A stretch of DNA of 64,000 nucleotides from Candidatus Enterousia sp. (GTDB lineage: Bacteria; Pseudomonadota; Alphaproteobacteria; Rs-D84): NCBI GenBank assembly GCA_045539815.1, contig JAZQGC010000002.1, forward strand, positions 11,794-75,793, in the 5' to 3' direction. Below, piece by piece: positions 13,251 to 62,956 of this stretch (position 1 is its first letter; each line of letters opens with the position of its first letter). The notes beneath the pieces are model-generated. The model saw only the letters and a program-made list of their open reading frames with translations, was not told the DNA's origin and ran no database searches. The position numbers were made by a program, and so were the translations under genes.

Positions 13251-13721
13251 ATGATAAACACCATATTTTTAACAGGACTGTTATCATTGGCGGCATGGCT
13301 GGCATATAAAATATCGGTTGCAGATTTTCGTCGGCGCATTATCCCGGACGCATACCTGTTTCCATTAATGTTAATCGGATTAATAACGACAACATTCTAT
13401 CAAATTCCAACAGATATTGAATCTGGGGTAATTGGCGCTGCTTTTGGATATTTTGTATCTTGTTTTATTGGGTTGGCATATGAATACATTTCCAAACGAC
13501 GCGCACAATCATACGACACACCAATTGGCATGGGGGACATCAAATTAATTGGGGTTGGGGGACTGTGGTTGGGCACAACTGGTTTATCCATTGCATTAAT
13601 AATATCTTGCATTATTGGTGCGTGGTGGGGACGGGCACACAAACAGCGTTTTATTCCATTTGCGCCATTTTTTATTTTTGGCTGTTTTTTGACTTTCATT
13701 AGTTTTGCCTTTTTGTTATAA
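13251..13721 (+). CDS. A24-family prepilin-peptidase-like membrane protein (CpaA/TadV type, no methyltransferase domain)
   Basis: 156 aa and polytopic. First Asp motif RRRIIPD and second motif GMGDIKLIG. Confidence 0.7.
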   Translation: MINTIFLTGLLSLAAWLAYKISVADFRRRIIPDAYLFPLMLIGLITTTFYQIPTDIESGVIGAAFGYFVSCFIGLAYEYISKRRAQSYDTPIGMGDIKLIGVGGLWLGTTGLSIALIISCIIGAWWGRAHKQRFIPFAPFFIFGCFLTFISFAFLL

Positions 13722-15766: not shown

Positions 15767-15768
15767 TC

Positions 15769-17454: not shown

Positions 17455-18493
17455 GGCAGGGGTTTATATTTTATTATTTTATGTGTTTATGACACCAATA
17501 CACGGTGTCGCATCTTTCTTGCAACCTGCGTCATTTCCAAAAACAATCCAAGACACAACAACATTTACCGAACGCATGGAAAACGAACGCATTGGATTTA
17601 TGCCATACAAGGATAAACGCGCATACGACACATTGAAAATACAAACAGAACAAGAATACTTGGACAGTATGATTCAAACTGCCAACGCACGCAACAAACA
17701 AGATCTGGCCAACATGTCTGTTGATGAATATTGTAATAAATATCCACTGGATGCTGAACGTTGTCCGCAAACATCTGGGCAAGAGGCACAAATTATCGCC
17801 AACGCAAATCGCAAACCAACACCCCAAACAATCGCCCAACCAACGGGTACTATTGTTGGCTATGACACTAACGGCATTGCTGTTATCGCCAAACCAAATG
17901 CATATAACGGACCATGCACACAACCACAACACAGCAATTGGTTTTCAAACAAAATATTAAGCACCGGTAAATACGCCGGCATTGACCCTGCATTTGAAAA
18001 AGCAATAATAACAACCTTTCGCAAAGAAGGTGATTGTGTAAACGACCCCGACGATTCGGGCGGATACACATGCTATGGCATATCCCAGAAAAATAATCCC
18101 GAAATTGATGTAAAAAATATAACGCGTGCAGACGCAGAAAATATTGCATATCAAAAATATTACACGCAATACGGATTCAACAAATTGCCCGACCACATTC
18201 GCGGTTCTGTATTTATGTTGGGCTGGAACGCCGGCCCCGTGGTCAGCATAAGACGTTTATGCCGTGTATTGGGGATACCAGAACGCAATGAAATAGACAA
18301 TGATATTATTAACGCCATACATAACTATCCCGGCGATTTACATAATGATTTCATGGATGTTCAACAGAAATTTTATATCGATGCATCGAACAAAAATAAT
18401 AACAAAAAATATTTAAAAGGCTGGATGGAAAGTGTTCGTTTGACACGCGAAAACGGATGTCACACTGAAACGACCACGCCAATCAGACGCTGA
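17447..18493 (+). CDS. secreted peptidoglycan muramidase, GH108 plus PG_binding_3-like, with an N-terminal module shared with the 13721 gene
   Basis: The KEGDCVNDPDDSGGYTCYGIS motif is GH108 type (EGG-VNDP-D-GG-T-YGI). The start overlaps the upstream stop by 8 nt (ATGACTAG). Confidence 0.75.
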   Translation: MTRAGVYILLFYVFMTPIHGVASFLQPASFPKTIQDTTTFTERMENERIGFMPYKDKRAYDTLKIQTEQEYLDSMIQTANARNKQDLANMSVDEYCNKYPLDAERCPQTSGQEAQIIANANRKPTPQTIAQPTGTIVGYDTNGIAVIAKPNAYNGPCTQPQHSNWFSNKILSTGKYAGIDPAFEKAIITTFRKEGDCVNDPDDSGGYTCYGISQKNNPEIDVKNITRADAENIAYQKYYTQYGFNKLPDHIRGSVFMLGWNAGPVVSIRRLCRVLGIPERNEIDNDIINAIHNYPGDLHNDFMDVQQKFYIDASNKNNNKKYLKGWMESVRLTRENGCHTETTTPIRR

Positions 18494-22572: not shown

Positions 22573-22689
22573 ATAAAGCGAACAAATATTAACTCAAATC
22601 TAAAACAATTGCAACAAGAAAAATTTGATTTTTTTAACTGCTTTTTCACTTGCGCTGTTTTTCATAAATTTGCTAAGATTTTAGCAGAG

Positions 22690-31084: not shown

Positions 31085-32185
31085 TTAATCTGCTAAATAA
31101 CATTCTTCGTCACAATATTCCGTCTCTGCATTAAAGTAACAATCCCCCGCTGACTTGCCGTCTACTGATTGCAAACTCCAAAATCCTGTATCATCTTCAC
31201 CAGACTTAGCACCATCATGCTTCTTATAACAATCGTTTTTCGTTCTCTCTTCATAATACGTTCTATTACAATTGGCTATATCTTTTGATTCTAATTTCTT
31301 TATGCTAATTTGATTAGAAGTATAACTGTCATATATGTATATATAATCTGGTACAAATAAAGATTTAGCAGAACCTAATTCCCCATTACCGCACTTATAC
31401 TTCTTAAAAGAAAATGCTTTTGAATCCTGTTGTACAAAACCATTGTCGTCACAAGATATACCGCCGCCTTTTGCAGTATAATTTATTTTGCCTTCCTCAT
31501 CCTTATACACTGGCACAAAATAGTTGGAAGGGGAATTATTTTTGTCTTCATACTGATATTTTACTACCCAATGATTCACTTTATTATCACCATTACCCAA
31601 ATCTGCAAATGCAATACACAAATCTTCAAGCCGCTCAGACCAATATACATTACGCTCTACAGATTCATTCTCATCATAACATAAACCACCCCCTTCGGTT
31701 GAATCCCAACACATTGCAGCTTGTTGTTCCGCCATAATATATGAACCATCCTCAAAATTCACGGAATCAGTATTATCTAAAAACACCATTGCATTATTAT
31801 TTGGATGAATATTTTGTACTCTACATGACGAGGATTCATACACATATTCACCATACTGCGTATTATTACAACATCTACTACCGCCCTGCGTCCCCCCAAA
31901 ACTTAAACAACTTGGTACGCAATGTCCACAATTTGAGGGAGGACTTGAACTGCTATCTATATAAAGAGTTGTTTCACTCCCATAAAAATCTTGATATTTT
32001 GCTCCTGGCAAGCTGTCAATTACATCTTTATAAGTAGTATTTTCTCTACACGGGTAATAAGACAACGTATCTTCTATGTCTTCGAAATAGTCAATTTGAG
32101 TATTTTGTTGCCAATAAGATGAAGATGTTTTAACAAAACCAAACAAAACAAAAAATACAACCAACACACGGGTTAATTTGTGCAT
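31085..32185 (-). CDS. secreted Cys-rich protein, CYY-E C-terminal family (large member)
   Basis: Signal peptide VVFFVLFGFVKTSSS. The C-terminus DDTGFWSLQSVDGKSAGDCYFNAETEYCDEECYLAD aligns to the 42797 gene C-terminus. Confidence 0.7.
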   Translation of the reverse strand: MHKLTRVLVVFFVLFGFVKTSSSYWQQNTQIDYFEDIEDTLSYYPCRENTTYKDVIDSLPGAKYQDFYGSETTLYIDSSSSPPSNCGHCVPSCLSFGGTQGGSRCCNNTQYGEYVYESSSCRVQNIHPNNNAMVFLDNTDSVNFEDGSYIMAEQQAAMCWDSTEGGGLCYDENESVERNVYWSERLEDLCIAFADLGNGDNKVNHWVVKYQYEDKNNSPSNYFVPVYKDEEGKINYTAKGGGISCDDNGFVQQDSKAFSFKKYKCGNGELGSAKSLFVPDYIYIYDSYTSNQISIKKLESKDIANCNRTYYEERTKNDCYKKHDGAKSGEDDTGFWSLQSVDGKSAGDCYFNAETEYCDEECYLAD

Positions 32186-38607: not shown

Positions 38608-39318
38608 ATGAACAAAATAAATAAGCTATTATGGGGAATATTAAGTCTTGGCATCAGCCTTATTTATCGTACAAATGTAGATGCGGCCCACTATACAGAT
38701 ACAAACGCAATAACAAACCCTGCTGTCGGCGACACAATCACTATCGGCTGCGATTTTGGCAATATTGTACTATCACTTGTGTACGCATTTAATCACGCAG
38801 CCAACACAACAAGTGACATTCCACGTGAAGAAAATTGCGTATACCTTGACGAGTATATATGCAACACAACCGCAACTTACACAAGCATGTGCAATTCTTT
38901 TAATCACACGGCAATACCAAAACACTCATCAGCTGTTAATCCATCTGATTTCACATGCAGCACATTAACCTGTCCAAACGGTGGCACATTGGGGCAACGT
39001 GCCGTACTTCAAACTGAGACATTAAATCTAACCAAAAACAGCAATTGTCACCGATATTACACTGGCGGCACTGGTCATCGCTACATTGGCTTTTCTTTTG
39101 TAATCAGTGCAATCACTGCCAGTTCTGGCTGGTACGGCAGCTATAGCAAATTCAACGGCACCAAGGATTGGATATATCAACAATACAGCATTTATTGGCA
39201 ACGCGTTAACAACAATTCTATAAACGATTGTTATCTTGCGCCGGGCACATATACCGACAGCAACGGCAACACATACACCCAAACCGATTCCGACAACAAA
39301 TGCTATTACCAGGAATAA
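38608..39318 (+). CDS. secreted Cys-rich protein, CYY-E family (tandem paralog 1)
   Basis: Conserved leader MNKINKLLWGILSLGISLIYRTNVDA, YTGGTGH motif, and a C-terminus ending CYYQE. Confidence 0.7.
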   Translation: MNKINKLLWGILSLGISLIYRTNVDAAHYTDTNAITNPAVGDTITIGCDFGNIVLSLVYAFNHAANTTSDIPREENCVYLDEYICNTTATYTSMCNSFNHTAIPKHSSAVNPSDFTCSTLTCPNGGTLGQRAVLQTETLNLTKNSNCHRYYTGGTGHRYIGFSFVISAITASSGWYGSYSKFNGTKDWIYQQYSIYWQRVNNNSINDCYLAPGTYTDSNGNTYTQTDSDNKCYYQE

Positions 39319-39330
39319 GGAAACCGCACA

Positions 39331-40128
39331 ATGAATAAACTGAATAAAGTTTTATGGGGAATCATCAGCGGATTTATATCCGTCGTGTATAACTTCAATG
39401 CACATGCACACGACTGCATACTCCATGAAATCGAGAGAATTGCCATCGACTGCGACTCTTCCAATTATGGCAGAAAATGTCCTGACGAACAATTGTCCAA
39501 CCCGACATATAAGAATGAAGCCTTTAGTACTCTGTTGAACACAATTATATATTCTGGGTATTACAACGTTAATGGTGGCGACGAAACACCTGTATATTGG
39601 TTTGCTGACAGTAATTATATTGATGACATATTAGATGCATTCAACACACAAAACGAATGGGTAAATGGTCGCCAATCCATCGCAGTCGATATCGACCATG
39701 AATTTGTCACAAACAGAACATATAACGGGAACATCGATTACGGTTCTTACTGCAACGCGGACTCTGAACAAAGTTGCAGTGGCAAAATAACAAATTGCCC
39801 CAGTCATACAGCCGGTATTCTGGCCAAATATACAACGACGGCATGGGTCGACAACGATGTTATTGAATATATATTGGGGGATTACAATCTGCGCAAAAAC
39901 CCCCAGGGCTATAATAACACCGACAACCCTTTATATGTATTTAACAACATATCATCTGCCATTGCGATTATGACAGTAAAAAATATCAACGATTGCAAAT
40001 ATTTTTATTCATACAGCGGAAAAAAAGCAACCGCATGTCGGGTTGCTCCGACCAGAGAATACAACGGTTCGGATACACGTGGACGATACGCAATCCCGGC
40101 AAACGACACCTGTTATTACGAATATTAA
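39331..40128 (+). CDS. secreted Cys-rich protein, CYY-E family (tandem paralog 2)
   Basis: Leader MNKLNKVLWGIISGFISVVYNFNAHA, C-terminus CYYEY, and the same AAGGAAACCGCACAATGAA 5' junction as paralog 3. Confidence 0.7.
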   Translation: MNKLNKVLWGIISGFISVVYNFNAHAHDCILHEIERIAIDCDSSNYGRKCPDEQLSNPTYKNEAFSTLLNTIIYSGYYNVNGGDETPVYWFADSNYIDDILDAFNTQNEWVNGRQSIAVDIDHEFVTNRTYNGNIDYGSYCNADSEQSCSGKITNCPSHTAGILAKYTTTAWVDNDVIEYILGDYNLRKNPQGYNNTDNPLYVFNNISSAIAIMTVKNINDCKYFYSYSGKKATACRVAPTREYNGSDTRGRYAIPANDTCYYEY

Positions 40129-40138
40129 ACCAACCAGA

Positions 40139-40167
40139 TTGACAACACATGCAAAAATTGCAACAAT
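40139..40167 (+). promoter_or_regulatory. sigma70-like promoter, TTGACA-17-AACAAT
   Basis: TTGACA at 40139-44 and AACAAT at 40162-67, followed by an A9 tract (40180-40188) and an AAGGA SD. Confidence 0.45.
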
Positions 40168-40200
40168 CGTAACGGTTGTAAAAAAAAAGGAAACCGCACA

Positions 40201-40911
40201 ATGAACAGACTGAATAAACTTTTATGGGGCATTCTAAGCTTTGGCATCAGCCTTGTTTATCGCGCAAACACAACAAACGCCAGCATATTCAGCGGTCTTA
40301 CCACTTTTGGCAACGGTAATGTCGGCGACACTATAACAGAATCATGTGACGAAATATTTGGCACAGGAATATTAAAATTCGAAATAATTGAGGCCACCGA
40401 AACAACAACCGAACCAACAAACACGACAAAATGCAGCGACCTGCCAGAATATTGTGACGAGATAACCAGCGAATACAACTATGATTTAGAAGCTTACAAA
40501 ACAAATTCCTATGGATGTGAATATGGCGATTTTCTTAATCTGGTAAATTATCGATATTGCGAGTCATGCCCTGGTGTCGGTTCAACAGACCAATCGCCAC
40601 TCTTTGACTGGTACAAAATATCCCTGGAAGACATCATTTGTTACAGCGAATACACCGGTGGCACGGGGCACGTATTCCGAAAATACAAAATTGGGCTGAT
40701 TGGGACAGACGTTGACCCCGACCCTGAAAGCACCGTTTTAACGGTCGTCAACGGCCGCAAATGCACAACAGAATATTCCAGTTGCGTCGGTTCCATTGAA
40801 TGGTTGGATGTAACTTATACCCCAGACAAAACAGATTGCCGCATATCTGTTAACGCAGGGACCGACGGACGCGGACACTACAAACAAAGATATTGTTATT
40901 ACGAAGAATAA
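40201..40911 (+). CDS. secreted Cys-rich protein, CYY-E family (tandem paralog 3)
   Basis: Leader MNRLNKLLWGILSFGISLVYRANTTNA, YTGGTGH motif, and C-terminus CYYEE. Confidence 0.7.
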   Translation: MNRLNKLLWGILSFGISLVYRANTTNASIFSGLTTFGNGNVGDTITESCDEIFGTGILKFEIIEATETTTEPTNTTKCSDLPEYCDEITSEYNYDLEAYKTNSYGCEYGDFLNLVNYRYCESCPGVGSTDQSPLFDWYKISLEDIICYSEYTGGTGHVFRKYKIGLIGTDVDPDPESTVLTVVNGRKCTTEYSSCVGSIEWLDVTYTPDKTDCRISVNAGTDGRGHYKQRYCYYEE

Positions 40912-41898: not shown

Positions 41899-42821
41899 AT
41901 GTATTATATTGTTTTGACAGTAAATTTTGGCGCATGGCGGCGGTTTCCATTGGTTCAATAATGAAAAACCGCGACAGCGGCACCAATATAACGGTATACT
42001 GTATGGTTGCGCCGCACACACGTGGCCGTCGCTATATCAATCGTATTGTACGGCGGGGTGGGGGGCGTTTAGTATGGCGCACAATACATCCGCGTCAAAA
42101 TCCATTTCGCAATCACGACTATTCGCGTTGGTCGCCTGTGATATTTTATCGTCTGTTTGCGCATCGTATTTTCAAGAATCTGGACAAGATATTATATTTG
42201 GATTCTGACACAATCATCCAGACCGATTTAACAAACCTGTACAACACAGATGTACGCGATTACGCAATGGGCGCGATACGCGACATGGCCCCCATACACA
42301 ACCCCAAAGAAAAAAGTGGCCAATATGTTCTTAATTTCAAGCAGAAATATTTAAAGAACGACTTGTATGTAAATTCTGGGGTATTGCTGTTAAACATGAA
42401 CTATATGCGCATTCATGGCGACGAATTGCTGGCGGTTAAGATACCATTAACATACCCCGACCAGGACATTTTAAATGTTGCATTTGATGGAAAAATACTG
42501 GAATTACCATTGCGTTATAACTGCGTACCGGACATGGGGGTTGATATCAAGTTCCCAAAATCAGAATATCTGTATGTAAAAAACAAAATAGAGATTGCAC
42601 ATTTTTACGCGGTAAAGCCATATTATTACCACCACACCCCGCGCAATTCATATGCAATATTCTATCACGCGGCGCGATATGTCGGATTTTATCCAGACGA
42701 ATTCATCAAGGCCGACGAACATCATGCATATCAACAAGAACACAAACGACATCGCACCCAAATACCATTTGTTCGCACGGACAACACCGGACAAATATGG
42801 TTCCTGTGGATGCGGATATAA
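41886..42821 (+). CDS. family 8 glycosyltransferase (LPS/LOS galactosyl- or glucosyltransferase-like)
   Basis: VLYCFDSKFW, YLDSDTII (DxD) and NSGVLLLN motifs. The start overlaps the GT2 stop. Confidence 0.8.
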   Translation: MSKVNVLYCFDSKFWRMAAVSIGSIMKNRDSGTNITVYCMVAPHTRGRRYINRIVRRGGGRLVWRTIHPRQNPFRNHDYSRWSPVIFYRLFAHRIFKNLDKILYLDSDTIIQTDLTNLYNTDVRDYAMGAIRDMAPIHNPKEKSGQYVLNFKQKYLKNDLYVNSGVLLLNMNYMRIHGDELLAVKIPLTYPDQDILNVAFDGKILELPLRYNCVPDMGVDIKFPKSEYLYVKNKIEIAHFYAVKPYYYHHTPRNSYAIFYHAARYVGFYPDEFIKADEHHAYQQEHKRHRTQIPFVRTDNTGQIWFLWMRI

Positions 42822-43939
42822 CCACAGCAACAGGGGACAGGGAACATGCCGGCACAAACAAACAAACAAACAAACAAACAAACAAACGAACAATAGTTAA
42901 ATTTGTTGTTTGTCTTCTTGTTGCTGCATTTCCATTATTTGCATACAGCACAACGCCTTCATTATTGAATTGCTCAACCACGGTTTATATGCACGAAATA
43001 CACCCCGGTGAATCCGGAACAATATACTACAACTCCGGTGCCAACTTGGATTCATATGAAGAATCTTGCGACCACCAAACAAGAATTTCTATAAACCAAT
43101 GCAGAAGAGGATCAAACGGAAGTAGCTGTTATATCAACGATTCAGCAAGTTTTTATTATGCAGAACAATGCCAAGAGCAACCTTGGGACAAATACACAGA
43201 CCTGACAGTATACACTGGCCAACTATCTCCTAAACGTAATCATGATTGGATAAATGGTGTAAATAATTACATAACTTCACAAAAAGCAATATGTTGTGGC
43301 AAGAATTTTGATTATTGTGGCAGCTGTTACAGCAATTATTCTCACACCCATGATGTATATTGGCAATACACAGATTCAGCCATAGTCAACAAATTCAACA
43401 GCATATCCTGGAACGGTGTAAAACATTATTATTTAACAATTGAAGAAAAAATACCGGACTTTATTACATCGAACAAATACTGTTCCGCCGCAAACGATGA
43501 TGGCACCTGTAAAACTTGGGCCACATGTCCAAATGGTGGCAAAGTATATTACCAACAAACCACATATCAATTACAACGCTGTACCAATGAATATGACTGT
43601 GAAGATATTACATCACAAGACGACATTAATAACCATCCTATTTACGAAGCACAATCAGGTAGCACCACCATAGAAGCAACAAAAATTAACGATATAAATT
43701 GCATAAACAAAACCATAGTCGAAGTGAAAACACAAGACGATTGTTATAAAGAATACCTGACCGTAAAACCAAAAAACGATACATTTAATGACGAAAATTC
43801 CAATCAAAAATACGACACAAAAGAAACCTTTACCGATGACACTGGAACATATATTCTGAATGGAAATTATACTGGCAATTGTTTTTACAATGCAGAAGAA
43901 AACTATTGCAGCGAAAACAATTGTTATTTCAGCGACTAA
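42797..43939 (+). CDS. secreted Cys-rich protein, CYY-E family (large member), putatively phase-variable
   Basis: The ORF is in frame from ATG 42797 through the (CAAA)8 tract (TNKQTNKQTNK) into the signal peptide KFVVCLLVAAFPLFAYS. C-terminus CFYNAEENYCSENNCYFSD. Confidence 0.7.
   Translation: MVPVDADITTATGDREHAGTNKQTNKQTNKRTIVKFVVCLLVAAFPLFAYSTTPSLLNCSTTVYMHEIHPGESGTIYYNSGANLDSYEESCDHQTRISINQCRRGSNGSSCYINDSASFYYAEQCQEQPWDKYTDLTVYTGQLSPKRNHDWINGVNNYITSQKAICCGKNFDYCGSCYSNYSHTHDVYWQYTDSAIVNKFNSISWNGVKHYYLTIEEKIPDFITSNKYCSAANDDGTCKTWATCPNGGKVYYQQTTYQLQRCTNEYDCEDITSQDDINNHPIYEAQSGSTTIEATKINDINCINKTIVEVKTQDDCYKEYLTVKPKNDTFNDENSNQKYDTKETFTDDTGTYILNGNYTGNCFYNAEENYCSENNCYFSD
42855..42886. repeat. 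perfect tetranucleotide microsatellite (CAAA)8
   Basis: Counted base by base: C at 42855, 59, 63, 67, 71, 75, 79 and 83. It is followed by the degenerate units CGAA and CAAT. Confidence 0.95.
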
Positions 43940-44690: not shown

Positions 44691-45221
44691 TCAATCACCA
44701 TAACCAACGGTCGCCAACATACATTGCCATGTTCTGGAACCGTAGTTATCAGTACCATTAACGTCTCTTTTTGATAAATAAGCCGCACAGTTAGCCGCAC
44801 AATTTTCCGAACATTTTTTGTTGTATATATAAAAATAAATCCATCCCGATTCGAACGGGTGTGTCATTTTACACCAACAATATTCACCATCATTACGTCC
44901 ATAAAAATTGTCGTTCACATCACCATTTGATGCAGCGGTTTGCCCCCAATACCCAGATATATAATTCGGTCCTGCACAACTGTGCAGTGGCAAATTCGTT
45001 TTATCCGACTTTAATGTACTGCACGACGCAACGCCACTGACCGCGCCAAAACCATTAATATTTATACGCCAATCAAAACCATCACCCACATATCCGGATG
45101 CGGTTGTGTTTTTGTAATCCGTTCCCAATACAACCTGGTCCGATTTGGCGCAAAATGTCGCACCAGACGCAATCAACGGGCACAACGCAATATATAAAAC
45201 AACCAAAATATTCCTGAACAT
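44691..45221 (-). CDS. secreted Cys-rich protein, CWC family
   Basis: Start at MFRNILVVLYIALCPLIASGA. Motifs GVASCS and YCWCKMTHPFESGWIYF...C...C...CA. Confidence 0.65.
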   Translation of the reverse strand: MFRNILVVLYIALCPLIASGATFCAKSDQVVLGTDYKNTTASGYVGDGFDWRININGFGAVSGVASCSTLKSDKTNLPLHSCAGPNYISGYWGQTAASNGDVNDNFYGRNDGEYCWCKMTHPFESGWIYFYIYNKKCSENCAANCAAYLSKRDVNGTDNYGSRTWQCMLATVGYGD

Positions 45222-45238
45222 CAGTATCCCTTTTGTTA

Positions 45239-45721
45239 TTACCATACTGCTTCGAATAATTTATCCCGAAACGCATAACTGCCCACGACACCATCGGCGC
45301 ACAGGCGCGCACATCCCGACGTACACAAATCCACACTGTCATATGAACGCAAATACATAAAATAACTGGTCGCGGGACGACGCAACGCACACCAACAATG
45401 TGCCCCCATATCATCAGCCGGCACGACCTGATTTCCCGTTACAACCGTATATTGCGCCCCCGCAGAAAATTCACTGCACGACGCAACACCGCGCAAGAAC
45501 CGAAATGTACCGTTCATCGATGACATTGTGTCGTAATCAACGTCAACCCGCCAATTCATACCATCAATCTGGGGCGCGCCATACTTAACAGAATTATCCG
45601 TATCCTTGTCCATCGTAACCACGACCGAAAAATCGGTCTGACACATCACCCCAATTGCCACACCGGGCAGGGCACATAACAACATCATCACACACCAGAT
45701 AAATTTACCTTGTATAATCAT
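45239..45721 (-). CDS. secreted Cys-rich protein, CWC family
   Basis: Signal peptide; motifs RGVASCS and HCWCALRRPATSYFMY...C...C...CA. Confidence 0.65.
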   Translation of the reverse strand: MIIQGKFIWCVMMLLCALPGVAIGVMCQTDFSVVVTMDKDTDNSVKYGAPQIDGMNWRVDVDYDTMSSMNGTFRFLRGVASCSEFSAGAQYTVVTGNQVVPADDMGAHCWCALRRPATSYFMYLRSYDSVDLCTSGCARLCADGVVGSYAFRDKLFEAVW

Positions 45722-45730
45722 TATCGGTCC

Positions 45731-46570
45731 TTATTTTACGGCATGATAAAAATTATCTTCGTACATTATGTTTATGGCGCCTTTGCTTTTTTCCGGCACC
45801 AGATTAACATAACATTGACGATTACCAGACTTAAAGTTTAACGATGGGGTCGTCAATTTTTTTGCATATATCGGGATTACCAAACCACCACCCGTACGCA
45901 AATAACGCATACTGACCCCCGTACTGGTCAACGCGCATAAATTGGCACAATTACCCAAATAGTTCATATCTTGTCCGGCGGCACACAAACGCACCGCCAA
46001 CTTTGTATCCGGCACATCAGTATACGGATACCCATGTATTGATATCAGGCTGTTATCTGTCAAATTCGAACCATCGTATGGCGAAACAAGACGTGTACCC
46101 GACGGACAATCAAGACCATTGGCCACAACACGCATTGAATCATTCGAAAACACATTATTATATCCCGCCGGACAATTTTCTGTATCAGGCGCATACGACA
46201 CACAACCCACACCATCAAAATATCCGTTTTCACACATGGTTACCGGAATTTGATTTAACATATACACCCCAGGCTTACGCATCCGATGCGTGGCCTCTGG
46301 GCATGTACCATCAGTCCGGGGCATACCAATTCCAAACAAATTTACTGTGATATAATTATCGGCACAATAATCATTTGCGACATATTTCTGACATGAATAT
46401 TCAACTGTTTTTGTGGTTGTTTCTGCGGCCTCATCAGTTATTTCTGTAACCGTCATCACCGGATATCCACCATCACACAGCATCATATCGGGCAGGGCGC
46501 CATACACAGTCGCCGAACACATGAACATCATAAAAAATATAAATATCCCCCACATATCGCCATCACGCAT
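45731..46570 (-). CDS. secreted Cys-rich protein with CP[AS]G modules and the TTPSL-type C-terminal domain
   Basis: Signal peptide IFIFFMMFMCSATVYG. C-terminus IPIYAKKLTTPSLNFKSGNRQCYVNLVPEKSKGAINIMYEDNFYHAVK. Confidence 0.65.
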   Translation of the reverse strand: MRDGDMWGIFIFFMMFMCSATVYGALPDMMLCDGGYPVMTVTEITDEAAETTTKTVEYSCQKYVANDYCADNYITVNLFGIGMPRTDGTCPEATHRMRKPGVYMLNQIPVTMCENGYFDGVGCVSYAPDTENCPAGYNNVFSNDSMRVVANGLDCPSGTRLVSPYDGSNLTDNSLISIHGYPYTDVPDTKLAVRLCAAGQDMNYLGNCANLCALTSTGVSMRYLRTGGGLVIPIYAKKLTTPSLNFKSGNRQCYVNLVPEKSKGAINIMYEDNFYHAVK

Positions 46571-49084: not shown

Positions 49085-50149
49085 ATGAAAAAAGTACTTT
49101 CATACACAACCTGCGCCCTGCTGCTTACCGGTATTACCAACACAACCAACGCCACACCGGCGGCAACATACGCAAACAACATTACCACAAACAATATCAG
49201 CGCCCTGCAACACACAATCGTAAACACCGCATTTAACAATCTGCACGGGAACAAAACAACAAATACCACAACCACAAAGAACAACAATTCCCATGACATA
49301 TACGGTCGCGCACCAATGTACGGCACAATGTCCCAATACGGCGAATACAACGACGACGGACGCAGTGGCGGCGACAAAAGCAACGCCGCACTGAACAACA
49401 TACAATTCACATGGCAACACAACGCAGACCGCGTAAAATTTAACGAATTCGCACCACTTGATACCGACTCTGACCTGATACTTGTCAATCTGATTGGGAA
49501 CGAGTATAATATCGGCACAGTAAAAAACACATGGGGAATATACACTGGTTACATTGGCACAACCCAAGAAAACAATCAAATAAACATTGACGAACAAGGC
49601 GGATATTTTGGACTTGCAAACAATTTCAATATACAAAAATTAAACATAAAAACAACAATTAACGCCGGCGCATTGGACAATTCGGTCGACACCACAAACG
49701 GCACAGACGATTATACAAACTTTTGGATTGGCGCCGCCACCAGAATATCATACGATATAAAACTGGACCCTTCATTAATCCTGCGCCCAGAAATATACGC
49801 AGGATACACATGGATTAAATCAGACGACTACACATCCGCATCGGGCCAATTCATAAACAACAGCAATACAAATTCTTTTGAAATAACCCCAGCCATCAAT
49901 ATCACAAAACATGTTGGCAATAATTGGTATTGGACATTGAACACAAAATATATAATCATTACCAACAACGACAAAAACATAATCGTAAACAATACAAAGT
50001 TAAAAGAATTAGATATTGGAAACTTTTTTGAATATGGTTTAACCATAAACAAACAGTTTGATAATACAGATTTTTCCATCAATATCGGCCGACACGACGG
50101 CGACAGATATGGTTGGTTTGGCGGATTAAATATGCGCTATATATTCTAA
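49085..50149 (+). CDS. outer-membrane beta-barrel protein (autotransporter beta-domain-like, minimal passenger)
   Basis: Signal peptide ...TNTTNA, alternating beta-strand pattern, and a C-terminal ...GGLNMRYIF with terminal Phe. Confidence 0.6.
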   Translation: MKKVLSYTTCALLLTGITNTTNATPAATYANNITTNNISALQHTIVNTAFNNLHGNKTTNTTTTKNNNSHDIYGRAPMYGTMSQYGEYNDDGRSGGDKSNAALNNIQFTWQHNADRVKFNEFAPLDTDSDLILVNLIGNEYNIGTVKNTWGIYTGYIGTTQENNQINIDEQGGYFGLANNFNIQKLNIKTTINAGALDNSVDTTNGTDDYTNFWIGAATRISYDIKLDPSLILRPEIYAGYTWIKSDDYTSASGQFINNSNTNSFEITPAINITKHVGNNWYWTLNTKYIIITNNDKNIIVNNTKLKELDIGNFFEYGLTINKQFDNTDFSINIGRHDGDRYGWFGGLNMRYIF

Positions 50150-55877: not shown

Positions 55878-58800
55878 TCACAATACGCTATCATCATGCA
55901 CCCAATATGGAACCCCCTTGTCAACGATGCGCAAGGCGCGATTTGATTCCGTATTCATTTTTGTTTCTGTTTTGGACATATCGCCATAATATACCACCCC
56001 GTCGACACGCACATGTAACGATGGCGTTGTACGCTTTACTGAACGCAAATACAGTTTATTTTCACCAATATGTAAAATACGTCCGCAATCAGTACTTTCA
56101 TCTGCCCCCTTGCCATATCCGATTGTACGCAACGCATCTTTACACTGATTGCGTCCGACATATTGTAACGACAACTGTTGCAATATATCACCGGCATTGT
56201 TATCTAACTGTCCTTCTGCCGACGGCGACCAGTAACCATCGCCAACCTTGGCACAAGTATTTTCAATCGCATCTTGTGGGCCGGTTGCGACATATACATT
56301 ATTTATCAGATCATTAACATCGGTTATATCTGCGTTATGTGGCGACCAATATCCTGGCCCGCACATCAGTGCGACACCTGTACAATTTGCATCATACAAT
56401 TTTGTCACAGGGTTGTAATCACAGCTGACATAGAATAATCCCCGTTCATTTACCTTGTCATCATATCCTGCATCAACATTTGTATTGTTTTGAAGATCCA
56501 AATACCAACGTTCTGCGTATCCGAACACCGCACGACATTGGTTTGCCGCGGAATGCGGCGCATGTTCCAACGCATCCAACAATTCTGCACTTGCTGCGCC
56601 ATATTTTTCTGTTATTGTCGGACACTTCTCTAATCCTTGGACTTGACCATTATATTCCCAGGCCCCGCCCGTACAGAACGAATCGTCTGGACATTCTGCG
56701 CAAACATCACCATTTAAATAATATCCGGCATCACAAGATATAGAACTGATAGACCATTGTGCAGTCAAATTAATCACCGCATTATTTTCAGCCGTCGCAT
56801 TAACCAAAGACGCCCCAGGTTGAATCACCTTGCCATCGCAACTGCCACCGCTGCACAACCAACCAACAAAATTATAACCAGTCATTACAAACGCATTATT
56901 TTCCGCGACACAGCCACCATCATAGTTACAAACAACATCTGCCATATCACCAGACCCAAGGCCCGCATTATATTTCACAGTAAATGTGTTTGCCACGCAT
57001 GCATTTGTTGTTACGGTTGTGCCACCATTATAATTATATCCCGTGTTACATGTACAGCTTGCCTGACCTGTGGCGCCATTTGTGGACGAATTTGCCGGAC
57101 ACGCATTACACTGTGCGCTGTTTGTTTCTGTCCAAGTATTTGCACCACATGTTGTAATATTGTTATCGGAACATGCAGACCCCGCCGGACAAGTTACACA
57201 TACACCATTGTTCATATAAAGACCAGAATAACAACTGCTGACAGAACACAAATCACAATTTGTATATGCGCCTGTTTCTTCTTCGTACATACAAGACCTG
57301 ACACCTGTTCCTACTTCCGTGGAACACTCAACCACAGGCAACATACACTCTTCAATAGATCCCGCAGTATCTGTCAGCGTTACACCCCCATCCGGACATG
57401 CGTGTGTGATATTTGTGTCAGAAAACATACATTTTTCGGTTTCTTCTTCTGGCAGGCTAACACATTGTTCTGCACCAGCAGACCAATTATTATATCCAAC
57501 AGGAACACATATATTGTTAATAGCTTCTTGTGGATTTGACGCATAAACCATTAAAGACATAACGTCGATATTACCATATTGAACATCCAGAATATCGTTA
57601 TCAAAATTAGAAACGTACCCCGTACCACAAAAAGTTGCATACCCGCGACAATCGCTATCATATTGTTGTGTTGTTGTATTATATTTACAATCTACCACAT
57701 AATATCCTCTATTATTGGCATTCCAATCAAAATCGTCACCATCAATATTTGTCTCTCCAAGATCAGCAAACCATTTTGGAAGATACACAAATAAAGCTCT
57801 ACATTGGTTAACCGACGAATTGCGCGTCTCATCTAAAAGCCCCCCATTGTATGCGCTTGCCGCACCATACTTGTTTGTTACTGCTGGGCAGTCTGTTCTG
57901 CCGTGGATTCCACCGTCATATAACCACTCGCCACCTTCGCAATAATATTCATCTTCGCAGTCGATACAATATAAACCATCCAGATATTGTCCTGCTGGGC
58001 ATGAAATAATTACAGGTTTCCATTGTGCAACAAAAACCAAGCTATCCATATTTACATCCGTCAAATCTGACACAGTTTGCCCATCTGCAAATTTTTCGCC
58101 ATTAAACAGCCAACCATCAAATTCATGTCCCGCTTTATAGAAAGTGTTTTTATTTAAAACACATGATGTACCATATGTGCATGTTGTATCTGTCATACTG
58201 CCATCGCCACCATTTGCATTGTATCTGATGGTGTATGTGATTGGTTCCCATTGTGCATACAAGAACAAACCTGCGCCCTGTGTTGACGATGCATTTTTAA
58301 GGTTTGCACCATCTTCAAAATACTGGCTTTTATCGTAATTTGCCCAATTCTTGAATATGTATCCCGTTTTTGTATATGTGTTTGCGCTAATGTAACAGTC
58401 GGAATTATATGTACATGTTGTGTTTGCCATACTGCCATCGCCACCATTAGATACATATATGACAGTAAATGTATTTGCCGTCCATTGCGCTGTAAATGTA
58501 ACACTGGCACCGTTCGTGCTGGTCAGATTGGTATCAATGGTCGAACCCGACTGATATGTTGTTGAAACATACTGCCATCCAGCAAATGTATAACCAGTTT
58601 TTGTTGGTTTTGTGCTGGATACGGTACAATTTTGACCGTATGTACATATTGTGTCTGCTATACTGCCATCGCCACCGTTTGTATTATACTTAATTGTATA
58701 TGTGTTTGCCACGCATGCATTTGTTGTTACGGTTGTGCCACCATTATAATTATATCCCGTGTTACATGTACAGCTTGCCTGACCCGTGGCACCATTTGTG

Positions 58801-61664
58801 GATGAATTTGTTGGACACGCACTAATAATTCCTGTATCTGTATAATTTACTTTACCACCAGGACACATATTATTCACCGGACAATTTGTCACTGTGTCCG
58901 CACCAGAAATCGCAATATATTTTCCTGATTCAACAGTCATTTGACACTGATTTATCGCCGTCAGCCCTGCACCGCCATCGTCATATCCGTTTGGACATGG
59001 GGTACAAGACACCTTGCCACCAAAATAAGATTCAAATCCTGTCATGTATTGATATTCGCCTGCTGGACACGATGTTATCAGCCCAGAACCAGTGAAAACT
59101 TCTGTCATTTGATCTGTTGCCGTTGTTGTCTTGCTGATACCGGCAAACAAATCGTTCGGAATATCGCCATGAACTTTTGAACAACCATAGAACATTCTTC
59201 TGAACATTCTTGTATTTGGTGTGCCACTGATGCCAGCAAACAAATCTGATGGAATTTCACTGTTTAACGACGAACAGCCTTCGAATGTACTGTTAAACAT
59301 TCTTTCTGTCGGCACACCGTTAAATGTACCAAAGAAATTCGAAGGTATTGTAAAGTTTAATTTAGAACACCCCCAAAACGTATTATTATACATATAATCC
59401 GCTGGGGCCCCACTGATACGTGCAAATAAATCAGATGGCACAGTTTCCAGATTTGAACATCCTGCAAATGTATCCGCAAACATATAACCTGCTGGTTTTC
59501 CATAAATACCGCCAAACAGTCCACTTGGGATTGTTGTCAAACTTTTACATTGTGCAAACGTTGCATTAAACAATGCAGACGCAGGACTGCCGTCTAATCC
59601 ACCAAACAACCCAGCTGGCACAGTCTTCAACGCTGTTCCCTCGAACGTAGATCTAAACATGTTGCTGACAGGCTGACTTGTAATCCCATCAAATAACGTC
59701 GAAGGTATAGATTCCAGATTTGTACTATTATAGAAAGACTGAAAGAAACGCGGTTGTGATCCATTTGACAATGTACCAAATATCGCCCCCAGACTGCCTG
59801 ACAGACTTTTGATATTTGTATTTCCATTAAAAGTGATTGCTGCCATATTTGACGCAGAATTATATTCGGTCGCCTGACCAGAGATACCAATCACATAAGA
59901 TTTTGATCCGATTAATTCATATGTAAAAGATTCTAAATTCGTATTTGTTTTATTGATAACCTTAATAGCAGATCCATCACCTAAATCAACATAAAAAGTC
60001 CCCTTTGCAGTTAATGAAAAAGTAAAAGCTTCAGGATTGTCAACTGTTGTAATTTCAACCTCGGGCACAAATGGTGTACATGCTGTTGTTGTAGTTGTCA
60101 GCGAACCATTTGCCAAATATCCATTTTTACACGTACAATATGATGAACCTGCGGAACTGGTTGAATTTTCTGGACATGTGTAAACACCAAATGTGTCATT
60201 ATATGTCCCGCTGCTGCACCCTGGCACAGAACCACCTGGACAATAAGAACCCGCTGGACACGTTGATACTTCACGATACAACATTGAACGTGATGTATTT
60301 GAAGAACAATAATCATCCAAATAACGCGTCTTCAGATAATACCCCGGATTTACCCTGTACCAATATATAGAACTGGTGGTCATACCATACTTACCCGCGG
60401 ACGAATCATAACGAACGCCTTCATATGTAACATATCCCGCATTTGTTGTAAAACCATATACAGCCGCACATCGATTAATATCAGATAATCCAACATTTAT
60501 CCAAAATGCATATTCGTTTCTGCCGTCATCAAATACATAATCCGATCCCGGCAACACGGTTGGTTTATGTGTACTTGGGTCCGGACATGCGTTTGCGCCA
60601 CCTGTTGAACCATAAGTAACCTTGACACCACCAGGACAATAATTATTTTCTGAACACGTTGTCTGTGCAGAATCATTTGCATTTGCAATATATTTTCCCG
60701 CCGTGGTTGTTACATAGCACTTATTCTGTGCGGTATTCCCTGCGTCTGATGTATATCCTGTTGGACAAGTATACATCAAATGAGTTGCGCCATCGTATGT
60801 TCGTGTTCCCCCCGGACAGTAATATCCGGCCTTACACGTTTCACAGGTTGTTATGTTCAAATATTTTCCCGCAGAACAGGTATAGCTATTTGCAGTCCAT
60901 TGTGCGGTAAATGTAACACTGCCACCATTTGTGCTGGTCAGATTAGATACGGTCGCGCCCGCCTGATATGTTGTTGAACCATACTTCCATCCGGCAAATG
61001 TATAACCAGTCTTTGTTGGTTTTGTGCTGGATACGGTACAGTTTTGTCCGTATGTGCATGTTGTGTCGGATACCGCGCTGCCGCCCGCAGAATCGTATTT
61101 AATTGTGTAAGTATTTGCCGTCCATTGTGCATACAATGTTGCCTGATCATTACCATTGGGATTAGAACCTGTAATCGCCCCGGCACTTGATATTATTTGG
61201 CTGCCACCAGATGCGGCTGTATAAAAACCATTAAATGTATACCCTGTTCTGGTTGGTAATTGTGACGAACTTAACGTAGATATCGTGGTACCGATTGCCG
61301 CTGCAGATGTTGCAGGCGTTCCTGTTGTTTTCTTTAAACTGGTAAACCAGGCAACTCCCTTAACCGTATATAATTGTGCCAATCCACCCGAACCACCATT
61401 TGGGTTTAATGTAACCTTGTATGCCGGTGCATATGTGCCCCCAGGACAGAATTCTGCACGTGGCGCATAATCCGTACAAGAAGAACATATATTTCCAGTT
61501 GTTGGTGTACCATTATAAGCACCGTTATACCTCATAAAAAACCCAGCTCCACATGAAGTATATTTTACGGCAGAGTCACAAACATAGCCGGCCGCATAAA
61601 CATTTGCTGCCAACCCAAAGAACATCAAAAAAACCGTAAAAAGCCCAACAAATACGCGCTTCAA
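55878..61664 (-). CDS. giant (1928 aa) mosaic surface protein: Listeria-Bacteroides (Flg_new) repeats, BspA/DUF285-like LRRs, ephrin-receptor/VSP-like Cys repeats, TTPSL-type C-terminal domain
   Basis: Uninterrupted 5.8 kb ORF. Signal peptide MKRVFVGLFTVFLMFFGLAANVYA. Flg_new units end TGYTFAGW...TAQWTAN. There are about 24-aa F..TF.GC..L...IPS.LF repeats around 59100-59720. CxxGxY...CxxCxxGYYCPGG motifs occur throughout. Confidence 0.85.
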   Translation of the reverse strand: MKRVFVGLFTVFLMFFGLAANVYAAGYVCDSAVKYTSCGAGFFMRYNGAYNGTPTTGNICSSCTDYAPRAEFCPGGTYAPAYKVTLNPNGGSGGLAQLYTVKGVAWFTSLKKTTGTPATSAAAIGTTISTLSSSQLPTRTGYTFNGFYTAASGGSQIISSAGAITGSNPNGNDQATLYAQWTANTYTIKYDSAGGSAVSDTTCTYGQNCTVSSTKPTKTGYTFAGWKYGSTTYQAGATVSNLTSTNGGSVTFTAQWTANSYTCSAGKYLNITTCETCKAGYYCPGGTRTYDGATHLMYTCPTGYTSDAGNTAQNKCYVTTTAGKYIANANDSAQTTCSENNYCPGGVKVTYGSTGGANACPDPSTHKPTVLPGSDYVFDDGRNEYAFWINVGLSDINRCAAVYGFTTNAGYVTYEGVRYDSSAGKYGMTTSSIYWYRVNPGYYLKTRYLDDYCSSNTSRSMLYREVSTCPAGSYCPGGSVPGCSSGTYNDTFGVYTCPENSTSSAGSSYCTCKNGYLANGSLTTTTTACTPFVPEVEITTVDNPEAFTFSLTAKGTFYVDLGDGSAIKVINKTNTNLESFTYELIGSKSYVIGISGQATEYNSASNMAAITFNGNTNIKSLSGSLGAIFGTLSNGSQPRFFQSFYNSTNLESIPSTLFDGITSQPVSNMFRSTFEGTALKTVPAGLFGGLDGSPASALFNATFAQCKSLTTIPSGLFGGIYGKPAGYMFADTFAGCSNLETVPSDLFARISGAPADYMYNNTFWGCSKLNFTIPSNFFGTFNGVPTERMFNSTFEGCSSLNSEIPSDLFAGISGTPNTRMFRRMFYGCSKVHGDIPNDLFAGISKTTTATDQMTEVFTGSGLITSCPAGEYQYMTGFESYFGGKVSCTPCPNGYDDGGAGLTAINQCQMTVESGKYIAISGADTVTNCPVNNMCPGGKVNYTDTGIISACPTNSSTNGATGQASCTCNTGYNYNGGTTVTTNACVANTYTIKYNTNGGDGSIADTICTYGQNCTVSSTKPTKTGYTFAGWQYVSTTYQSGSTIDTNLTSTNGASVTFTAQWTANTFTVIYVSNGGDGSMANTTCTYNSDCYISANTYTKTGYIFKNWANYDKSQYFEDGANLKNASSTQGAGLFLYAQWEPITYTIRYNANGGDGSMTDTTCTYGTSCVLNKNTFYKAGHEFDGWLFNGEKFADGQTVSDLTDVNMDSLVFVAQWKPVIISCPAGQYLDGLYCIDCEDEYYCEGGEWLYDGGIHGRTDCPAVTNKYGAASAYNGGLLDETRNSSVNQCRALFVYLPKWFADLGETNIDGDDFDWNANNRGYYVVDCKYNTTTQQYDSDCRGYATFCGTGYVSNFDNDILDVQYGNIDVMSLMVYASNPQEAINNICVPVGYNNWSAGAEQCVSLPEEETEKCMFSDTNITHACPDGGVTLTDTAGSIEECMLPVVECSTEVGTGVRSCMYEEETGAYTNCDLCSVSSCYSGLYMNNGVCVTCPAGSACSDNNITTCGANTWTETNSAQCNACPANSSTNGATGQASCTCNTGYNYNGGTTVTTNACVANTFTVKYNAGLGSGDMADVVCNYDGGCVAENNAFVMTGYNFVGWLCSGGSCDGKVIQPGASLVNATAENNAVINLTAQWSISSISCDAGYYLNGDVCAECPDDSFCTGGAWEYNGQVQGLEKCPTITEKYGAASAELLDALEHAPHSAANQCRAVFGYAERWYLDLQNNTNVDAGYDDKVNERGLFYVSCDYNPVTKLYDANCTGVALMCGPGYWSPHNADITDVNDLINNVYVATGPQDAIENTCAKVGDGYWSPSAEGQLDNNAGDILQQLSLQYVGRNQCKDALRTIGYGKGADESTDCGRILHIGENKLYLRSVKRTTPSLHVRVDGVVYYGDMSKTETKMNTESNRALRIVDKGVPYWVHDDSVL
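56985..57104. repeat. intragenic 120 bp near-identical direct repeat, copy 1
   Basis: Differs from 58701-58820 at only about 5 positions. Encodes CP(A/T)NSSTNGATGQASCTCNTGYNYNGGTTVTTNACVANT. Confidence 0.85.
58701..58820. repeat. intragenic 120 bp near-identical direct repeat, copy 2
   Basis: See the 56985-57104 entry. Confidence 0.85.
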
Positions 61665-61784
61665 GACCTAACTTCCTCTCTATCAAGTGACATCATAGAA
61701 CAAAACACAATTTACAACAAGCGCTTTTTTTACATATTTTAATTAATTTTTTATTTGACCCAAAAAAACAAAAAAGGCACATAT

Positions 61785-62447
61785 TTATGCGCCTTTGAAC
61801 CCTGTTGCGACAATAAACATCTCGACGCTATCCTTGCGCGAAGAAGGCGGTTTTATATGATGAACAGATTCAAATTTTTCCTTGATTTGCTTTAATAATT
61901 CATTTGTTGTTCCGCCGGTAAAAGACTTGCAAACAAAGGTTCCGCCAACCTTTAACGCGCGCAACGCGAAATCAAATGCATATTCCAACAAAACCATTTG
62001 GCGGATATGGTCTGTTTTCTTGTGTCCGACTGTATTTGGTGCCATATCAGAAACAATTACATCCGCGGTCCCTGCACCAACTTCGTCATGAGATAAGCCC
62101 AATTTTTCTTCCAGCCAGCGCAGTGCCGCATCCGTGGTAAAGTCCCCCTGATAAGTTTCAACACCAACAATCGGCGATATTTCCAATAAATCCATTGCAA
62201 AAATCTTGGATTTTGGGTAAGTACGCGCAATATATTGCGACCATGACCCTGGCGCTGCACCCAAATCAACAACAACCTGGCCGTTTCGCAAGAATTTGAA
62301 CTTTTCGTTCATTTCTATTAATTTATATGCGGCACGCGCACGATATCCATCCTTGTGCGCACGTGCGACATATGGATCTGCGGCCTGACGTTGCAACCAC
62401 GCGACCGAAGATTTTTTGCTGGCAATTTTTTTATTGGTTATCTTCAT
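61785..62447 (-). CDS. rlmE: 23S rRNA U2552 2'-O-methyltransferase RlmE/FtsJ
   Basis: YRARAAYKLIE, VVDLGAAPGSWSQ and DVIVSDMAPN motifs. Confidence 0.9.
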   Translation of the reverse strand: MKITNKKIASKKSSVAWLQRQAADPYVARAHKDGYRARAAYKLIEMNEKFKFLRNGQVVVDLGAAPGSWSQYIARTYPKSKIFAMDLLEISPIVGVETYQGDFTTDAALRWLEEKLGLSHDEVGAGTADVIVSDMAPNTVGHKKTDHIRQMVLLEYAFDFALRALKVGGTFVCKSFTGGTTNELLKQIKEKFESVHHIKPPSSRKDSVEMFIVATGFKGA

Positions 62448-62956
62448 TTAGATTTGCTTTGCATTTGTTTACATTTTTTATTATAAAAATCCATTGCACG
62501 ATCATGTGCATATTGTGAATTAAACAACGCAAAATGATCCATATCATGCGAAAAGAAGAATGTTTTACGCTGATTATTCTTGTATGTTACAACCACTTTA
62601 TACCCCAAGAAACGTTTTTGTTTTGGTGCATATACAAAAAAATCTGGCTCTGGCTTTTGGACATCAACCGGTGTATAATCGAAACGTTGTTTCAGATTAT
62701 GCGCCATATTATAAAACCAATTTCCATGAACACGCCACAGACAAGAATCTGCCAACCACAACGGCCCCGGCATTTTTTGCAACCTGCGTCCAACCGCGGG
62801 TGTTCCGTCAATTCTATCCTGGGGCACACTGTTTATCCACATAACAGATTCGCCCGAATTATTGGCAACTGTTAAATTATAAAACACAGACATATGCCCA
62901 TTGGCATCTGGTTTTGTTATTTTTTTTACTTCAATAATACGATTGTATTTTTCCAT
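62444..62956 (-). CDS. hypothetical protein
   Basis: 170 aa ORF. Its stop overlaps the rlmE start (4 nt). No recognisable domain. Confidence 0.5.
   Translation of the reverse strand: MEKYNRIIEVKKITKPDANGHMSVFYNLTVANNSGESVMWINSVPQDRIDGTPAVGRRLQKMPGPLWLADSCLWRVHGNWFYNMAHNLKQRFDYTPVDVQKPEPDFFVYAPKQKRFLGYKVVVTYKNNQRKTFFFSHDMDHFALFNSQYAHDRAMDFYNKKCKQMQSKSK

Follow-up and report, generated by a model that had tools for sequence, protein, structure and literature searches.

We analysed a 64,000-nucleotide stretch of the genome of Candidatus Enterousia sp. (contig JAZQGC010000002.1, positions 11,794 to 75,793 of the forward strand; hereafter, the window), in which a single gene at 55878..61664 on the minus strand encodes a protein of 1928 amino acids (aa). 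The protein is built from modules, its C-terminal domain places it in a large family found essentially in one alphaproteobacterial lineage, and its locus holds different genes in different species of that lineage. Our preferred reading, to which we assign a probability of roughly 0.55, is that it is a modular adhesin, that is, a Sec-exported, disulfide-rich binding protein belonging to a lineage-specific, fast-shuffling repertoire of Candidatus Enterousia, a member of the order Rs-D84. We infer an adhesive role at the surface from the position and conservation of the C-terminal domain, from the usual roles of Flg_new and BspA-like proteins, and from the lifestyle proposed for the lineage. Giant modular adhesin-like proteins are a known category; the conserved C-terminal domain and a duplicated module of ~185 aa are novel and unannotated.

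The open reading frame (ORF) is uninterrupted over 5787 nt (1928 codons), as a first-pass annotation made from the letters alone had proposed, and it starts with a TTG codon at 61664. Upstream of the Shine-Dalgarno (SD) sequence, which lies 7 nt 5' of this TTG, there are an AT-rich promoter-like stretch and a terminator-like hairpin (61773-61796) that belongs to rlmE, the gene preceding this one. The ortholog at locus L060 has the identical TTG start and retains the SD sequence, which makes the start credible. The protein contains only one hydrophobic segment, located at its N-terminus and similar to the N-termini of orthologs; on sequence grounds, this segment fits the Sec-type signal peptide that had been called there, and all 90 Cys residues lie C-terminal to it. 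The module order was established from self-comparison, family scans and motif searches, and the positions first given for the modules were all correct, a repeat period being the single factual error. From the 5' end of the gene, the features are as follows, with the PKD-like cap and the repeat block behind it referred to below as the cassette.

61672..61680, minus strand: SD sequence GAGAGGAAG, 7 nt from the TTG, kept in L060.
61593..61664, minus strand: putative signal peptide, aa 1-24 (MKRVFVGLFTVFLMFFGLAANVYA, followed by AG), from the TTG start.
61410..61592, minus strand: N-terminal Cys-rich module, aa 25-85 (GYVC..C..G.F...C..C....CPGG), present in a subset of relatives (matched in 12 of 295 proteins, best E 2.6e-16).
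60885..61409, minus strand: Flg_new block 1, aa 86-260, a degenerate leader and two repeats (Pfam, NCBIfam, self-comparison).
60078..60884, minus strand: Cys-rich region, aa 261-529, into which a module of ~110 aa is inserted at aa 360-470; the region also holds TNFR/ephrin-like half-units and, at aa 263, a 6-Cys unit, and is 71% identical to residues 314-701 of relative P0002.
59805..60077, minus strand: PKD-like beta-sandwich cap, aa 530-620 (TFYVDLGDGS...), called from a structural model and the Pfam matches of relatives.
59070..59804, minus strand: about seven repeats of 30-31 aa (MFxxTFxGCxxLxxIPxxLFxGIxGxP) and a cap, aa 621-865.
58710..59069, minus strand: Cys-rich block, aa 866-985, with the best, sub-threshold Ephrin_rec_like match of the protein.
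58017..58709, minus strand: Flg_new block 2, three repeats, aa 986-1216.
57465..58016, minus strand: module A, aa 1217-1400, a 6-Cys unit with an alpha/beta extension of ~135 aa.
56994..57464, minus strand: Cys-rich block, aa 1401-1557, whose final ~60 aa repeat those of aa 928-985.
56754..56993, minus strand: Flg_new block 3, one repeat, aa 1558-1637.
56205..56753, minus strand: module A', aa 1638-1820, 42-46% identical to module A.
55881..56204, minus strand: linker and family-defining C-terminal domain (core aa ~1859-1928).

The Flg_new repeats are unambiguous; the family consists of units of ~65-75 aa that carry a ...TGYTFxGW...AQW motif. Pfam family PF09479 matched six stretches of the protein with 119.7 bits (cut-off 27; E 6e-35), and TIGR02543 matched five with 86.5 bits (cut-off 20.95); the repeats fall into three blocks at about aa 137-260, 986-1216 and 1558-1637, so that the earlier count of at least six repeats in three blocks stands, as do their locations. 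With six such repeats, a very large size and export, the protein resembles the InlB B-repeat (Flg_new/List_Bact_rpt) giants of Firmicutes and other gut bacteria. It differs from them in coming from a diderm alphaproteobacterium and in having no LPXTG, SLH or other Gram-positive anchor; moreover, Flg_new makes up only about a quarter of it, the rest consisting of Cys-rich units, module A and the lineage-specific C-terminal domain.

The C-terminal domain, which had been noticed earlier as being of a TTPSL type, proved to be strongly conserved in relatives. Its core (DCGRILHIGENKLYLRSVKRTTPSLHVRVDGVVYYGDM...LRIVDKGVPYWVHDDSVL) follows the consensus CGRILHxG...YLRSxKKTTPSLNVK...YYGNM...L[KR]...YSVYDDS over ~70 residues. 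A hidden Markov model of the domain matched aa ~1859-1928 with an E value of 2.3e-37, a figure that is partly circular because the query copy is the first of the eight sequences in the alignment; an independent alignment to 27 relatives gave 35-59% identity. The diverged duplication described in the first-pass annotation, at ~190 aa, was recovered as a module of ~185 aa (aa 1213-1400 versus aa 1635-1820; 42-46% identity, E 1e-31 to 1e-18). Neither this module nor the C-terminal domain matched any Pfam or NCBIfam family, and sequence profiles of the two found no relative in the PDB. An AlphaFold model of aa 1636-1928 reached a mean predicted local distance difference test score (pLDDT) of 85.4, a predicted template-modelling score of 0.78 and a pLDDT of about 95 in the C-terminal domain, which is predicted to form three consecutive beta-hairpins behind a probable disulfide. 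Foldseek returned no significant structural neighbour of this model from the PDB or BFVD; the best BFVD match, to an uncharacterised target, had a probability of 0.97, an E value of 0.32 and a TM score of 0.18.

An exhaustive profile search with the C-terminal domain over 1.84 billion representative proteins recovered 757 clusters at E <= 1e-3 and 577 at E <= 1e-10, the carriers ranging from 64 to 6644 aa. A word-index search with the domain returned only short fragments, and a whole-protein homology search was flooded by Firmicutes Flg_new matches, leaving only the top few relatives informative. In 151 of the 184 members analysed locally (82%), no more than 15 residues separate the end of the domain from the C-terminus. 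Each module of the 1928-aa protein reappears in other members in different combinations, and NCBI names relatives 'InlB B-repeat-containing protein'.

A scan of one genome per GTDB species with a trimmed eight-sequence alignment of the C-terminal domain was used to place the family, and the 59 loci examined carry essentially only Candidatus Enterousia or uncultured Alphaproteobacteria/Rickettsiales labels; the hosts sampled include human, ruminant, horse and other guts. Four loci labelled Muribaculaceae or Bacteroides fragilis (L022, OZ246409.1; L028; L031; L054), one of them on a 716-kb 'chromosome', have flanks 65-85% identical to Enterousia-like alphaproteobacterial loci, and we therefore regard these labels as the result of mislabelling or mis-binning. 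The gene carrying the C-terminal domain adjoins secA in 26 of the 59 neighbourhoods and dnaE in 15, pfkA, dnaK and others being further housekeeping neighbours; these family genes thus occupy a few conserved sites flanked by housekeeping genes. Within the window, RlmE, PrfA and RnhA are 90-93% identical to the proteins of the Enterousia metagenome-assembled genome (MAG) loci L012 and L060, and transketolase is 72% identical. The source had been taken for a reduced alphaproteobacterium, in agreement with these identities and with the reported genome sizes of the Rs-D84/Enterousia lineage, which are mostly below 1 Mb (PMC12306168). These bacteria are widespread in human and animal guts, lack most biosynthesis and respiration as well as standard uptake systems, encode many uncharacterised membrane proteins and have been proposed to depend on a partner (PMC12306168). 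In the literature on Enterousia and Rs-D84, we found no paper describing the C-terminal-domain proteins.

The locus itself varies between species, as had been suspected. The context uvrA-ffh-(small ORFs)-rlmE-X-rnhA-tkt-ygjP is kept in three species, in which X differs as follows.

This genome: one gene of 1928 aa.
L060: a gene of 1236 aa (longer from the conserved TTG) with Flg_new, Cys units, module A and the C-terminal domain, and no repeat cassette.
L060, second gene: a separate gene of 849 aa with its own signal peptide, the PKD-like cap and ~20 repeats.
L012: one Cys-rich gene of 569 aa with the shared N-terminal motif and the C-terminal domain, and neither Flg_new nor the repeat cassette.

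Flanking proteins are 70-93% identical, whereas the alignable parts of X are 40-71% identical and are interrupted by large insertions and deletions. The cassette is internal to the protein here and a neighbouring gene in L060, direct evidence that modules have moved or that genes have fused or split. Between ffh and rlmE lies a 170-aa ORF (62444-62956, minus strand) with no Pfam match; its L060 counterpart is 67% identical, and it is absent from the corresponding position in L012.

The Cys-rich units are recognised more securely in the family than in this protein. The recurrent 6-Cys unit aligns as C-x-A-G-x-Y-L...C-x-x-C...Y-C-x-G-G...C-P...C, and three canonical CxAGxYL..CxxC..YCxGG units lie at aa 263, 1222 and 1644. 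The ephrin-receptor-like assignment made for these repeats at first reading did not hold for the 1928-aa protein taken alone, in which Ephrin_rec_like (PF07699) scored 17.5 and 16.7 bits against a cut-off of 23.1, but it did hold among relatives: 17 of 71 shorter family members matched it at E <= 0.001 (best 1.3e-15), six of ten relatives scanned individually exceeded the cut-off (for example, P0253 with 46.1 bits), the ELAPOR1 TNFR-like family was matched by 5 of the 71, and a profile of the unit matched human ELAPOR1 (E 5e-4). The unit shares the CxxGxY...CxxCxxGxY spacing of the ephrin-receptor-like, GCC2_GCC3 and TNFR-like repeats (PF07699, PF23091) and differs from them in being longer, with six Cys, a conserved YCxGG and a CP...C tail. 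AlphaFold gave no confident model for the Cys block at aa 893-985 (pLDDT <50). The description 'cysteine-knot-like' was rejected, as no cystine-knot family appeared in any scan and the only sequence relatives are TNFR/ephrin-type repeats.

For the repeat block, the first-pass annotation had described about eight units of ~24 aa resembling BspA/DUF285 leucine-rich repeats (LRRs). The block is indeed present at about 59070-59804; its unit is 30-31 aa, with about seven units and a cap, and the motif MFxxTFxGCxxL starts at aa 699, 728, 758, 789 and 820 (spacing 29-31 aa). The family resemblance is partial. TIGR02167 (PARCEL/Liste_lipo_26; cut-off 30) scored 18.3 bits on the whole protein and 31.9 bits on the isolated segment aa 529-865, where no individual stretch was significant and the alignment covered just the first 10-13 profile positions, and it scored 52.8 and 33.2 bits in relatives. 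DUF285 (PF03382) reached 12.3 bits in the 1928-aa protein, below its cut-off of 25, and LRR_5 (PF13306) was not reported for it, the relative P0258 giving 24.7 bits against a cut-off of 27.7. A profile of 13 homologous cassettes searched against PDB sequences found LRR proteins in 19 of its top 20 matches, led by LRRTM (E 2e-4) and followed by 4fs7, lamprey VLRs and InlB-based repebodies. In the AlphaFold model, the cap and repeat block are confident (pLDDT >90); the cap (aa 530-620) forms a beta-sandwich, and the repeats show one short beta-bridge per ~30 residues. Because the sequence scores are borderline and Foldseek found no significant neighbour in the PDB, we call the block an LRR-like solenoid of divergent PARCEL/DUF285/BspA type, not a confirmed member. 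PARCEL/DUF285/BspA proteins, exemplified by Listeria lipoproteins, Mycoplasma proteins, Tannerella BspA and BspA-like proteins of Trichomonas, likewise are exported and repeat F-x-G-C-x-x-L; they have a 26-residue period, which this block does not share, and here a PKD-like cap stands ahead of the block, as it always does in relatives, of which a single one can carry up to seven copies of the cassette. PKD_4 was weakly matched by 3 of the 13 homologous cassettes (E 0.0016), and the copy in the 1928-aa protein matched no PKD family (PF00801, PF18911) in Pfam at E <= 10.

Several results weigh against our reading of the protein as a surface adhesin. Pfam and NCBIfam scans of the 1928-aa protein found no outer-membrane translocator or anchor, and neither the whole protein nor its last 109 aa matched an autotransporter barrel or the C-terminal sorting domain of the type IX secretion system (T9SS). 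Clustering of the neighbourhoods of the 59 loci revealed no recurrent secretion or anchoring partner, only housekeeping genes. In 27 of the 184 members, the C-terminal domain is not the last one: a domain of 96-211 aa comes after it, either of a YTQVEYIQSSG... type or a Cys-rich "CWC" module. This weakens the case for a sorting signal that is always terminal and leaves room for other roles. For this protein, the sequence scores leave the LRR and ephrin-like calls at the borderline, with support at the family level, and Foldseek found nothing significant in the PDB for the cap and repeat model, the best of the matches listed having an E value of 0.2 and no LRR being among them. The surface location, the adhesion to a ligand and the role of the C-terminal domain are putative.

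The family nevertheless shows, as a functional analogy only, the distribution expected of sorting or retention domains such as the T9SS C-terminal domain, LPXTG motifs and autotransporter barrels: a small conserved domain at the extreme C-terminus of hundreds of differing architectures in one lineage. The C-terminal domain has no sequence or fold similarity to any of these, no cognate machinery was found, and 15% of members have a following domain. Cargo status for a type V secretion system or a T9SS was rejected, given that no such family matched and that the C-terminal domain is just ~70 aa. The best-placed alternative, rather unlikely in our estimation and still a serious rival, is a released, soluble binding or scavenging protein, in which the C-terminal domain would bind ligands, mediate oligomerisation or serve as an adaptor instead of anchoring. 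It is serious because no translocator or anchor was found in the protein scans or the 59 neighbourhoods, the neighbours are housekeeping genes only, and other domains, possibly lectin-like or Cys-rich, can follow the C-terminal one. P0001 combines the same N-terminal module with a different Cys-rich C-terminus, so that tails look interchangeable. On the other side, 82% of members keep the domain at their extreme C-terminus and vary in everything else, a pattern typical of sorting or retention modules, and giant Flg_new and LRR repeat proteins of other bacteria are usually cell-associated. Scavenging would make sense in a lineage without standard uptake systems (PMC12306168).

Antigenic or phase variation, with one coat protein expressed at a time in the manner of the variant-specific surface proteins (VSPs) of Giardia, would account for a large paralogous family of extremely diverse architecture, for several and sometimes adjacent members per genome, and for an orthologous locus that is completely different between species. 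We nevertheless consider it quite improbable. The gene has an ordinary promoter-like region and SD sequence of its own, with no switching device seen, and a direct-repeat scan of the ORF, which did not cover 1-3-base runs or promoter-flanking inverted repeats, found diverged copies only and no long identical repeats that could serve recombination. The documented variation is between species, and none was seen within a population; the one near-identical fragment from another sample, P0185, shares the architecture at 97.6% identity. The data give no sign of the variable 'coat' that had been suggested or of a switching mechanism. The resemblance to Giardia VSPs or ciliate surface antigens that had been pointed out extends to a Cys-rich composition, a large variable family, a presumed surface location and a gut organism. 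Giardia VSPs have a C-terminal transmembrane helix, a CRGKA tail and dense CxxC motifs, whereas the 1928-aa protein has eight CxxC motifs, ends in ...WVHDDSVL with no transmembrane helix or CRGKA tail, and matched no VSP family in the Pfam scans; VSP membership was therefore rejected.

It is very improbable that the assembly joined two or more repeat-rich genes into a chimeric 5.8-kb ORF. The gene is modular and of metagenome-type source, L060 carries the cassette as a separate gene, and neither junction of the cassette (aa ~529 and ~866) finds support in a close relative. However, the frame is intact throughout, and repeat collapse or mis-joining is not favoured because the longest DNA repeats inside the ORF are only 171 nt at 86% and 122 nt at 89% identity. 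In addition, the protein is colinear over long stretches with independently assembled relatives, as listed here.

aa 138-529: P0002, 71% identity.
aa 1051-1654: P0001, 47% identity.
aa 1449-1928: P0002, 52% identity.
aa 1633-1928: P0185, a fragment, with the identity given above.

P0038, a single ORF, has Flg_new, the cassette, a Cys block and Flg_new in that order, and a simple mis-join of neighbouring genes would not put the cassette mid-protein. A recent acquisition of the Cys-rich repeats from a eukaryote, whether a gut parasite or the animal host, is equally hard to credit: the only named relatives of the Cys unit, Ephrin_rec_like and ELAPOR1, are families best known from eukaryotes, but the similarity is marginal (17-23 bits), the unit occurs throughout, in highly diversified forms, in hundreds of Rs-D84 proteins, and a recent foreign origin of the gene was rejected on its uniform G+C content (0.40-0.43 along the gene versus ~0.41 in the rest of the window).

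The window encodes further secreted and Cys-rich proteins. A 279-aa Cys-rich secreted ORF at 45731..46570 (minus strand) contains KKLTTPSLNFK and gave a weak, truncated match to the C-terminal domain (E 0.0033). Two adjacent genes at 44691-45721 (minus strand) encode small secreted proteins of 184 and 160 aa with a 'YCWC...C...C..C' module, which also occurs inside P0038 and after the C-terminal domain in P0155 and P0235, and which seems to be one more of the shuffled modules, occurring as a gene of its own as well. In P0154, P0157, P0158, P0160, P0181, P0202 and P0203, the C-terminal domain is followed by a possibly lectin-like domain of 180-210 aa beginning with ...YTQVEYIQSSG.QYI.TG..., a motif also seen in jelly-roll/lectin-like and phage-tail receptor-binding domains; Laminin_G_3 was matched by one of the 71 scanned family members.

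At 38608-40911 (plus strand), three tandem ORFs of 236, 265 and 236 aa encode secreted Cys-rich paralogs, each of which has 9-11 Cys and a signal peptide resembling the others (MNKxNKxLWGI...), the first and third being 29-34% identical; none of the three matched the collected family proteins. The secreted proteins at 31085-32185 (minus strand) and 42797-43939 (plus strand), with 17 and 20 Cys and no family assignment, have in common a C-terminal region of ~95 aa (32% identity) ending in ...CYFNAE.(.)YC.E..CY..D. An 861-aa protein with 33 Cys at 22609-25194 (plus strand), which has a signal-peptide-like segment shortly after an upstream TTG, had no Pfam match and no similarity to the collected family proteins. 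At 13251-18493 (plus strand), a prepilin peptidase (Peptidase_A24) is followed by two paralogs, of 681 and 561 aa, which share 27% identity and matched nothing in Pfam, and then by a GH108 lysozyme-like gene with a weak peptidoglycan-binding match; this cluster may be envelope- or secretion-related. The 354-aa protein at 49085-50149 (plus strand) has an Asn/Thr-rich N-terminal part, matched the autotransporter beta-domain with 33.8 bits (cut-off 26) and has the C-terminus ...RYIF, of a kind typical for barrels of the outer membrane. Pfam scans of ten other ORFs of the window found no secretion system besides the prepilin peptidase and this small autotransporter-like barrel protein.

If the modular-adhesin reading is right, the protein would be exported through Sec, with cleavage of its signal peptide, and its disulfides would form outside the cytoplasm. 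It would then be delivered to the surface, with the C-terminal domain acting as a common retention or sorting handle, and rigid Cys-rich and Flg_new segments would form a stalk projecting the repeat cassette, module A and lectin-like modules towards structures on the host, a partner cell or mucus. The variable part of the family is built by duplication and recombination of Flg_new repeats, cap and repeat cassettes, 6-Cys units and the ~185-aa module, and rapid shuffling of modules at housekeeping-flanked loci could diversify binding specificity, antigenicity or both.

The C-terminal domain and module A are new entries for databases that now annotate their carriers as "InlB B-repeat-containing" or hypothetical, and a definition of the C-terminal domain provides a marker with which to enumerate the repertoire and a handle for localisation and pull-down. 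With three architectures at one site between housekeeping genes, the locus offers a clear natural case of domains being shuffled, and of genes being fused or split, in a reduced genome, in which a single gene of 5.8 kb would take up about 0.6% of the ~0.9 Mb reported as typical of Enterousia MAGs. The C-terminal-domain family may be what attaches these bacteria to a host or to a partner cell and is the obvious candidate for the interface of Rs-D84 with other cells. More tentatively, the C-terminal domain could be an unrecognised, Rs-D84-specific sorting or anchoring signal for some outer-membrane pathway, its several hundred carriers forming a fast-recombining adhesin repertoire for attaching to and exploiting a partner cell. 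Were this true, the lifestyle of Rs-D84 would be the alphaproteobacterial equivalent of that of the episymbiotic Patescibacteria, with a bacterium, a protist or the host epithelium as the partner.

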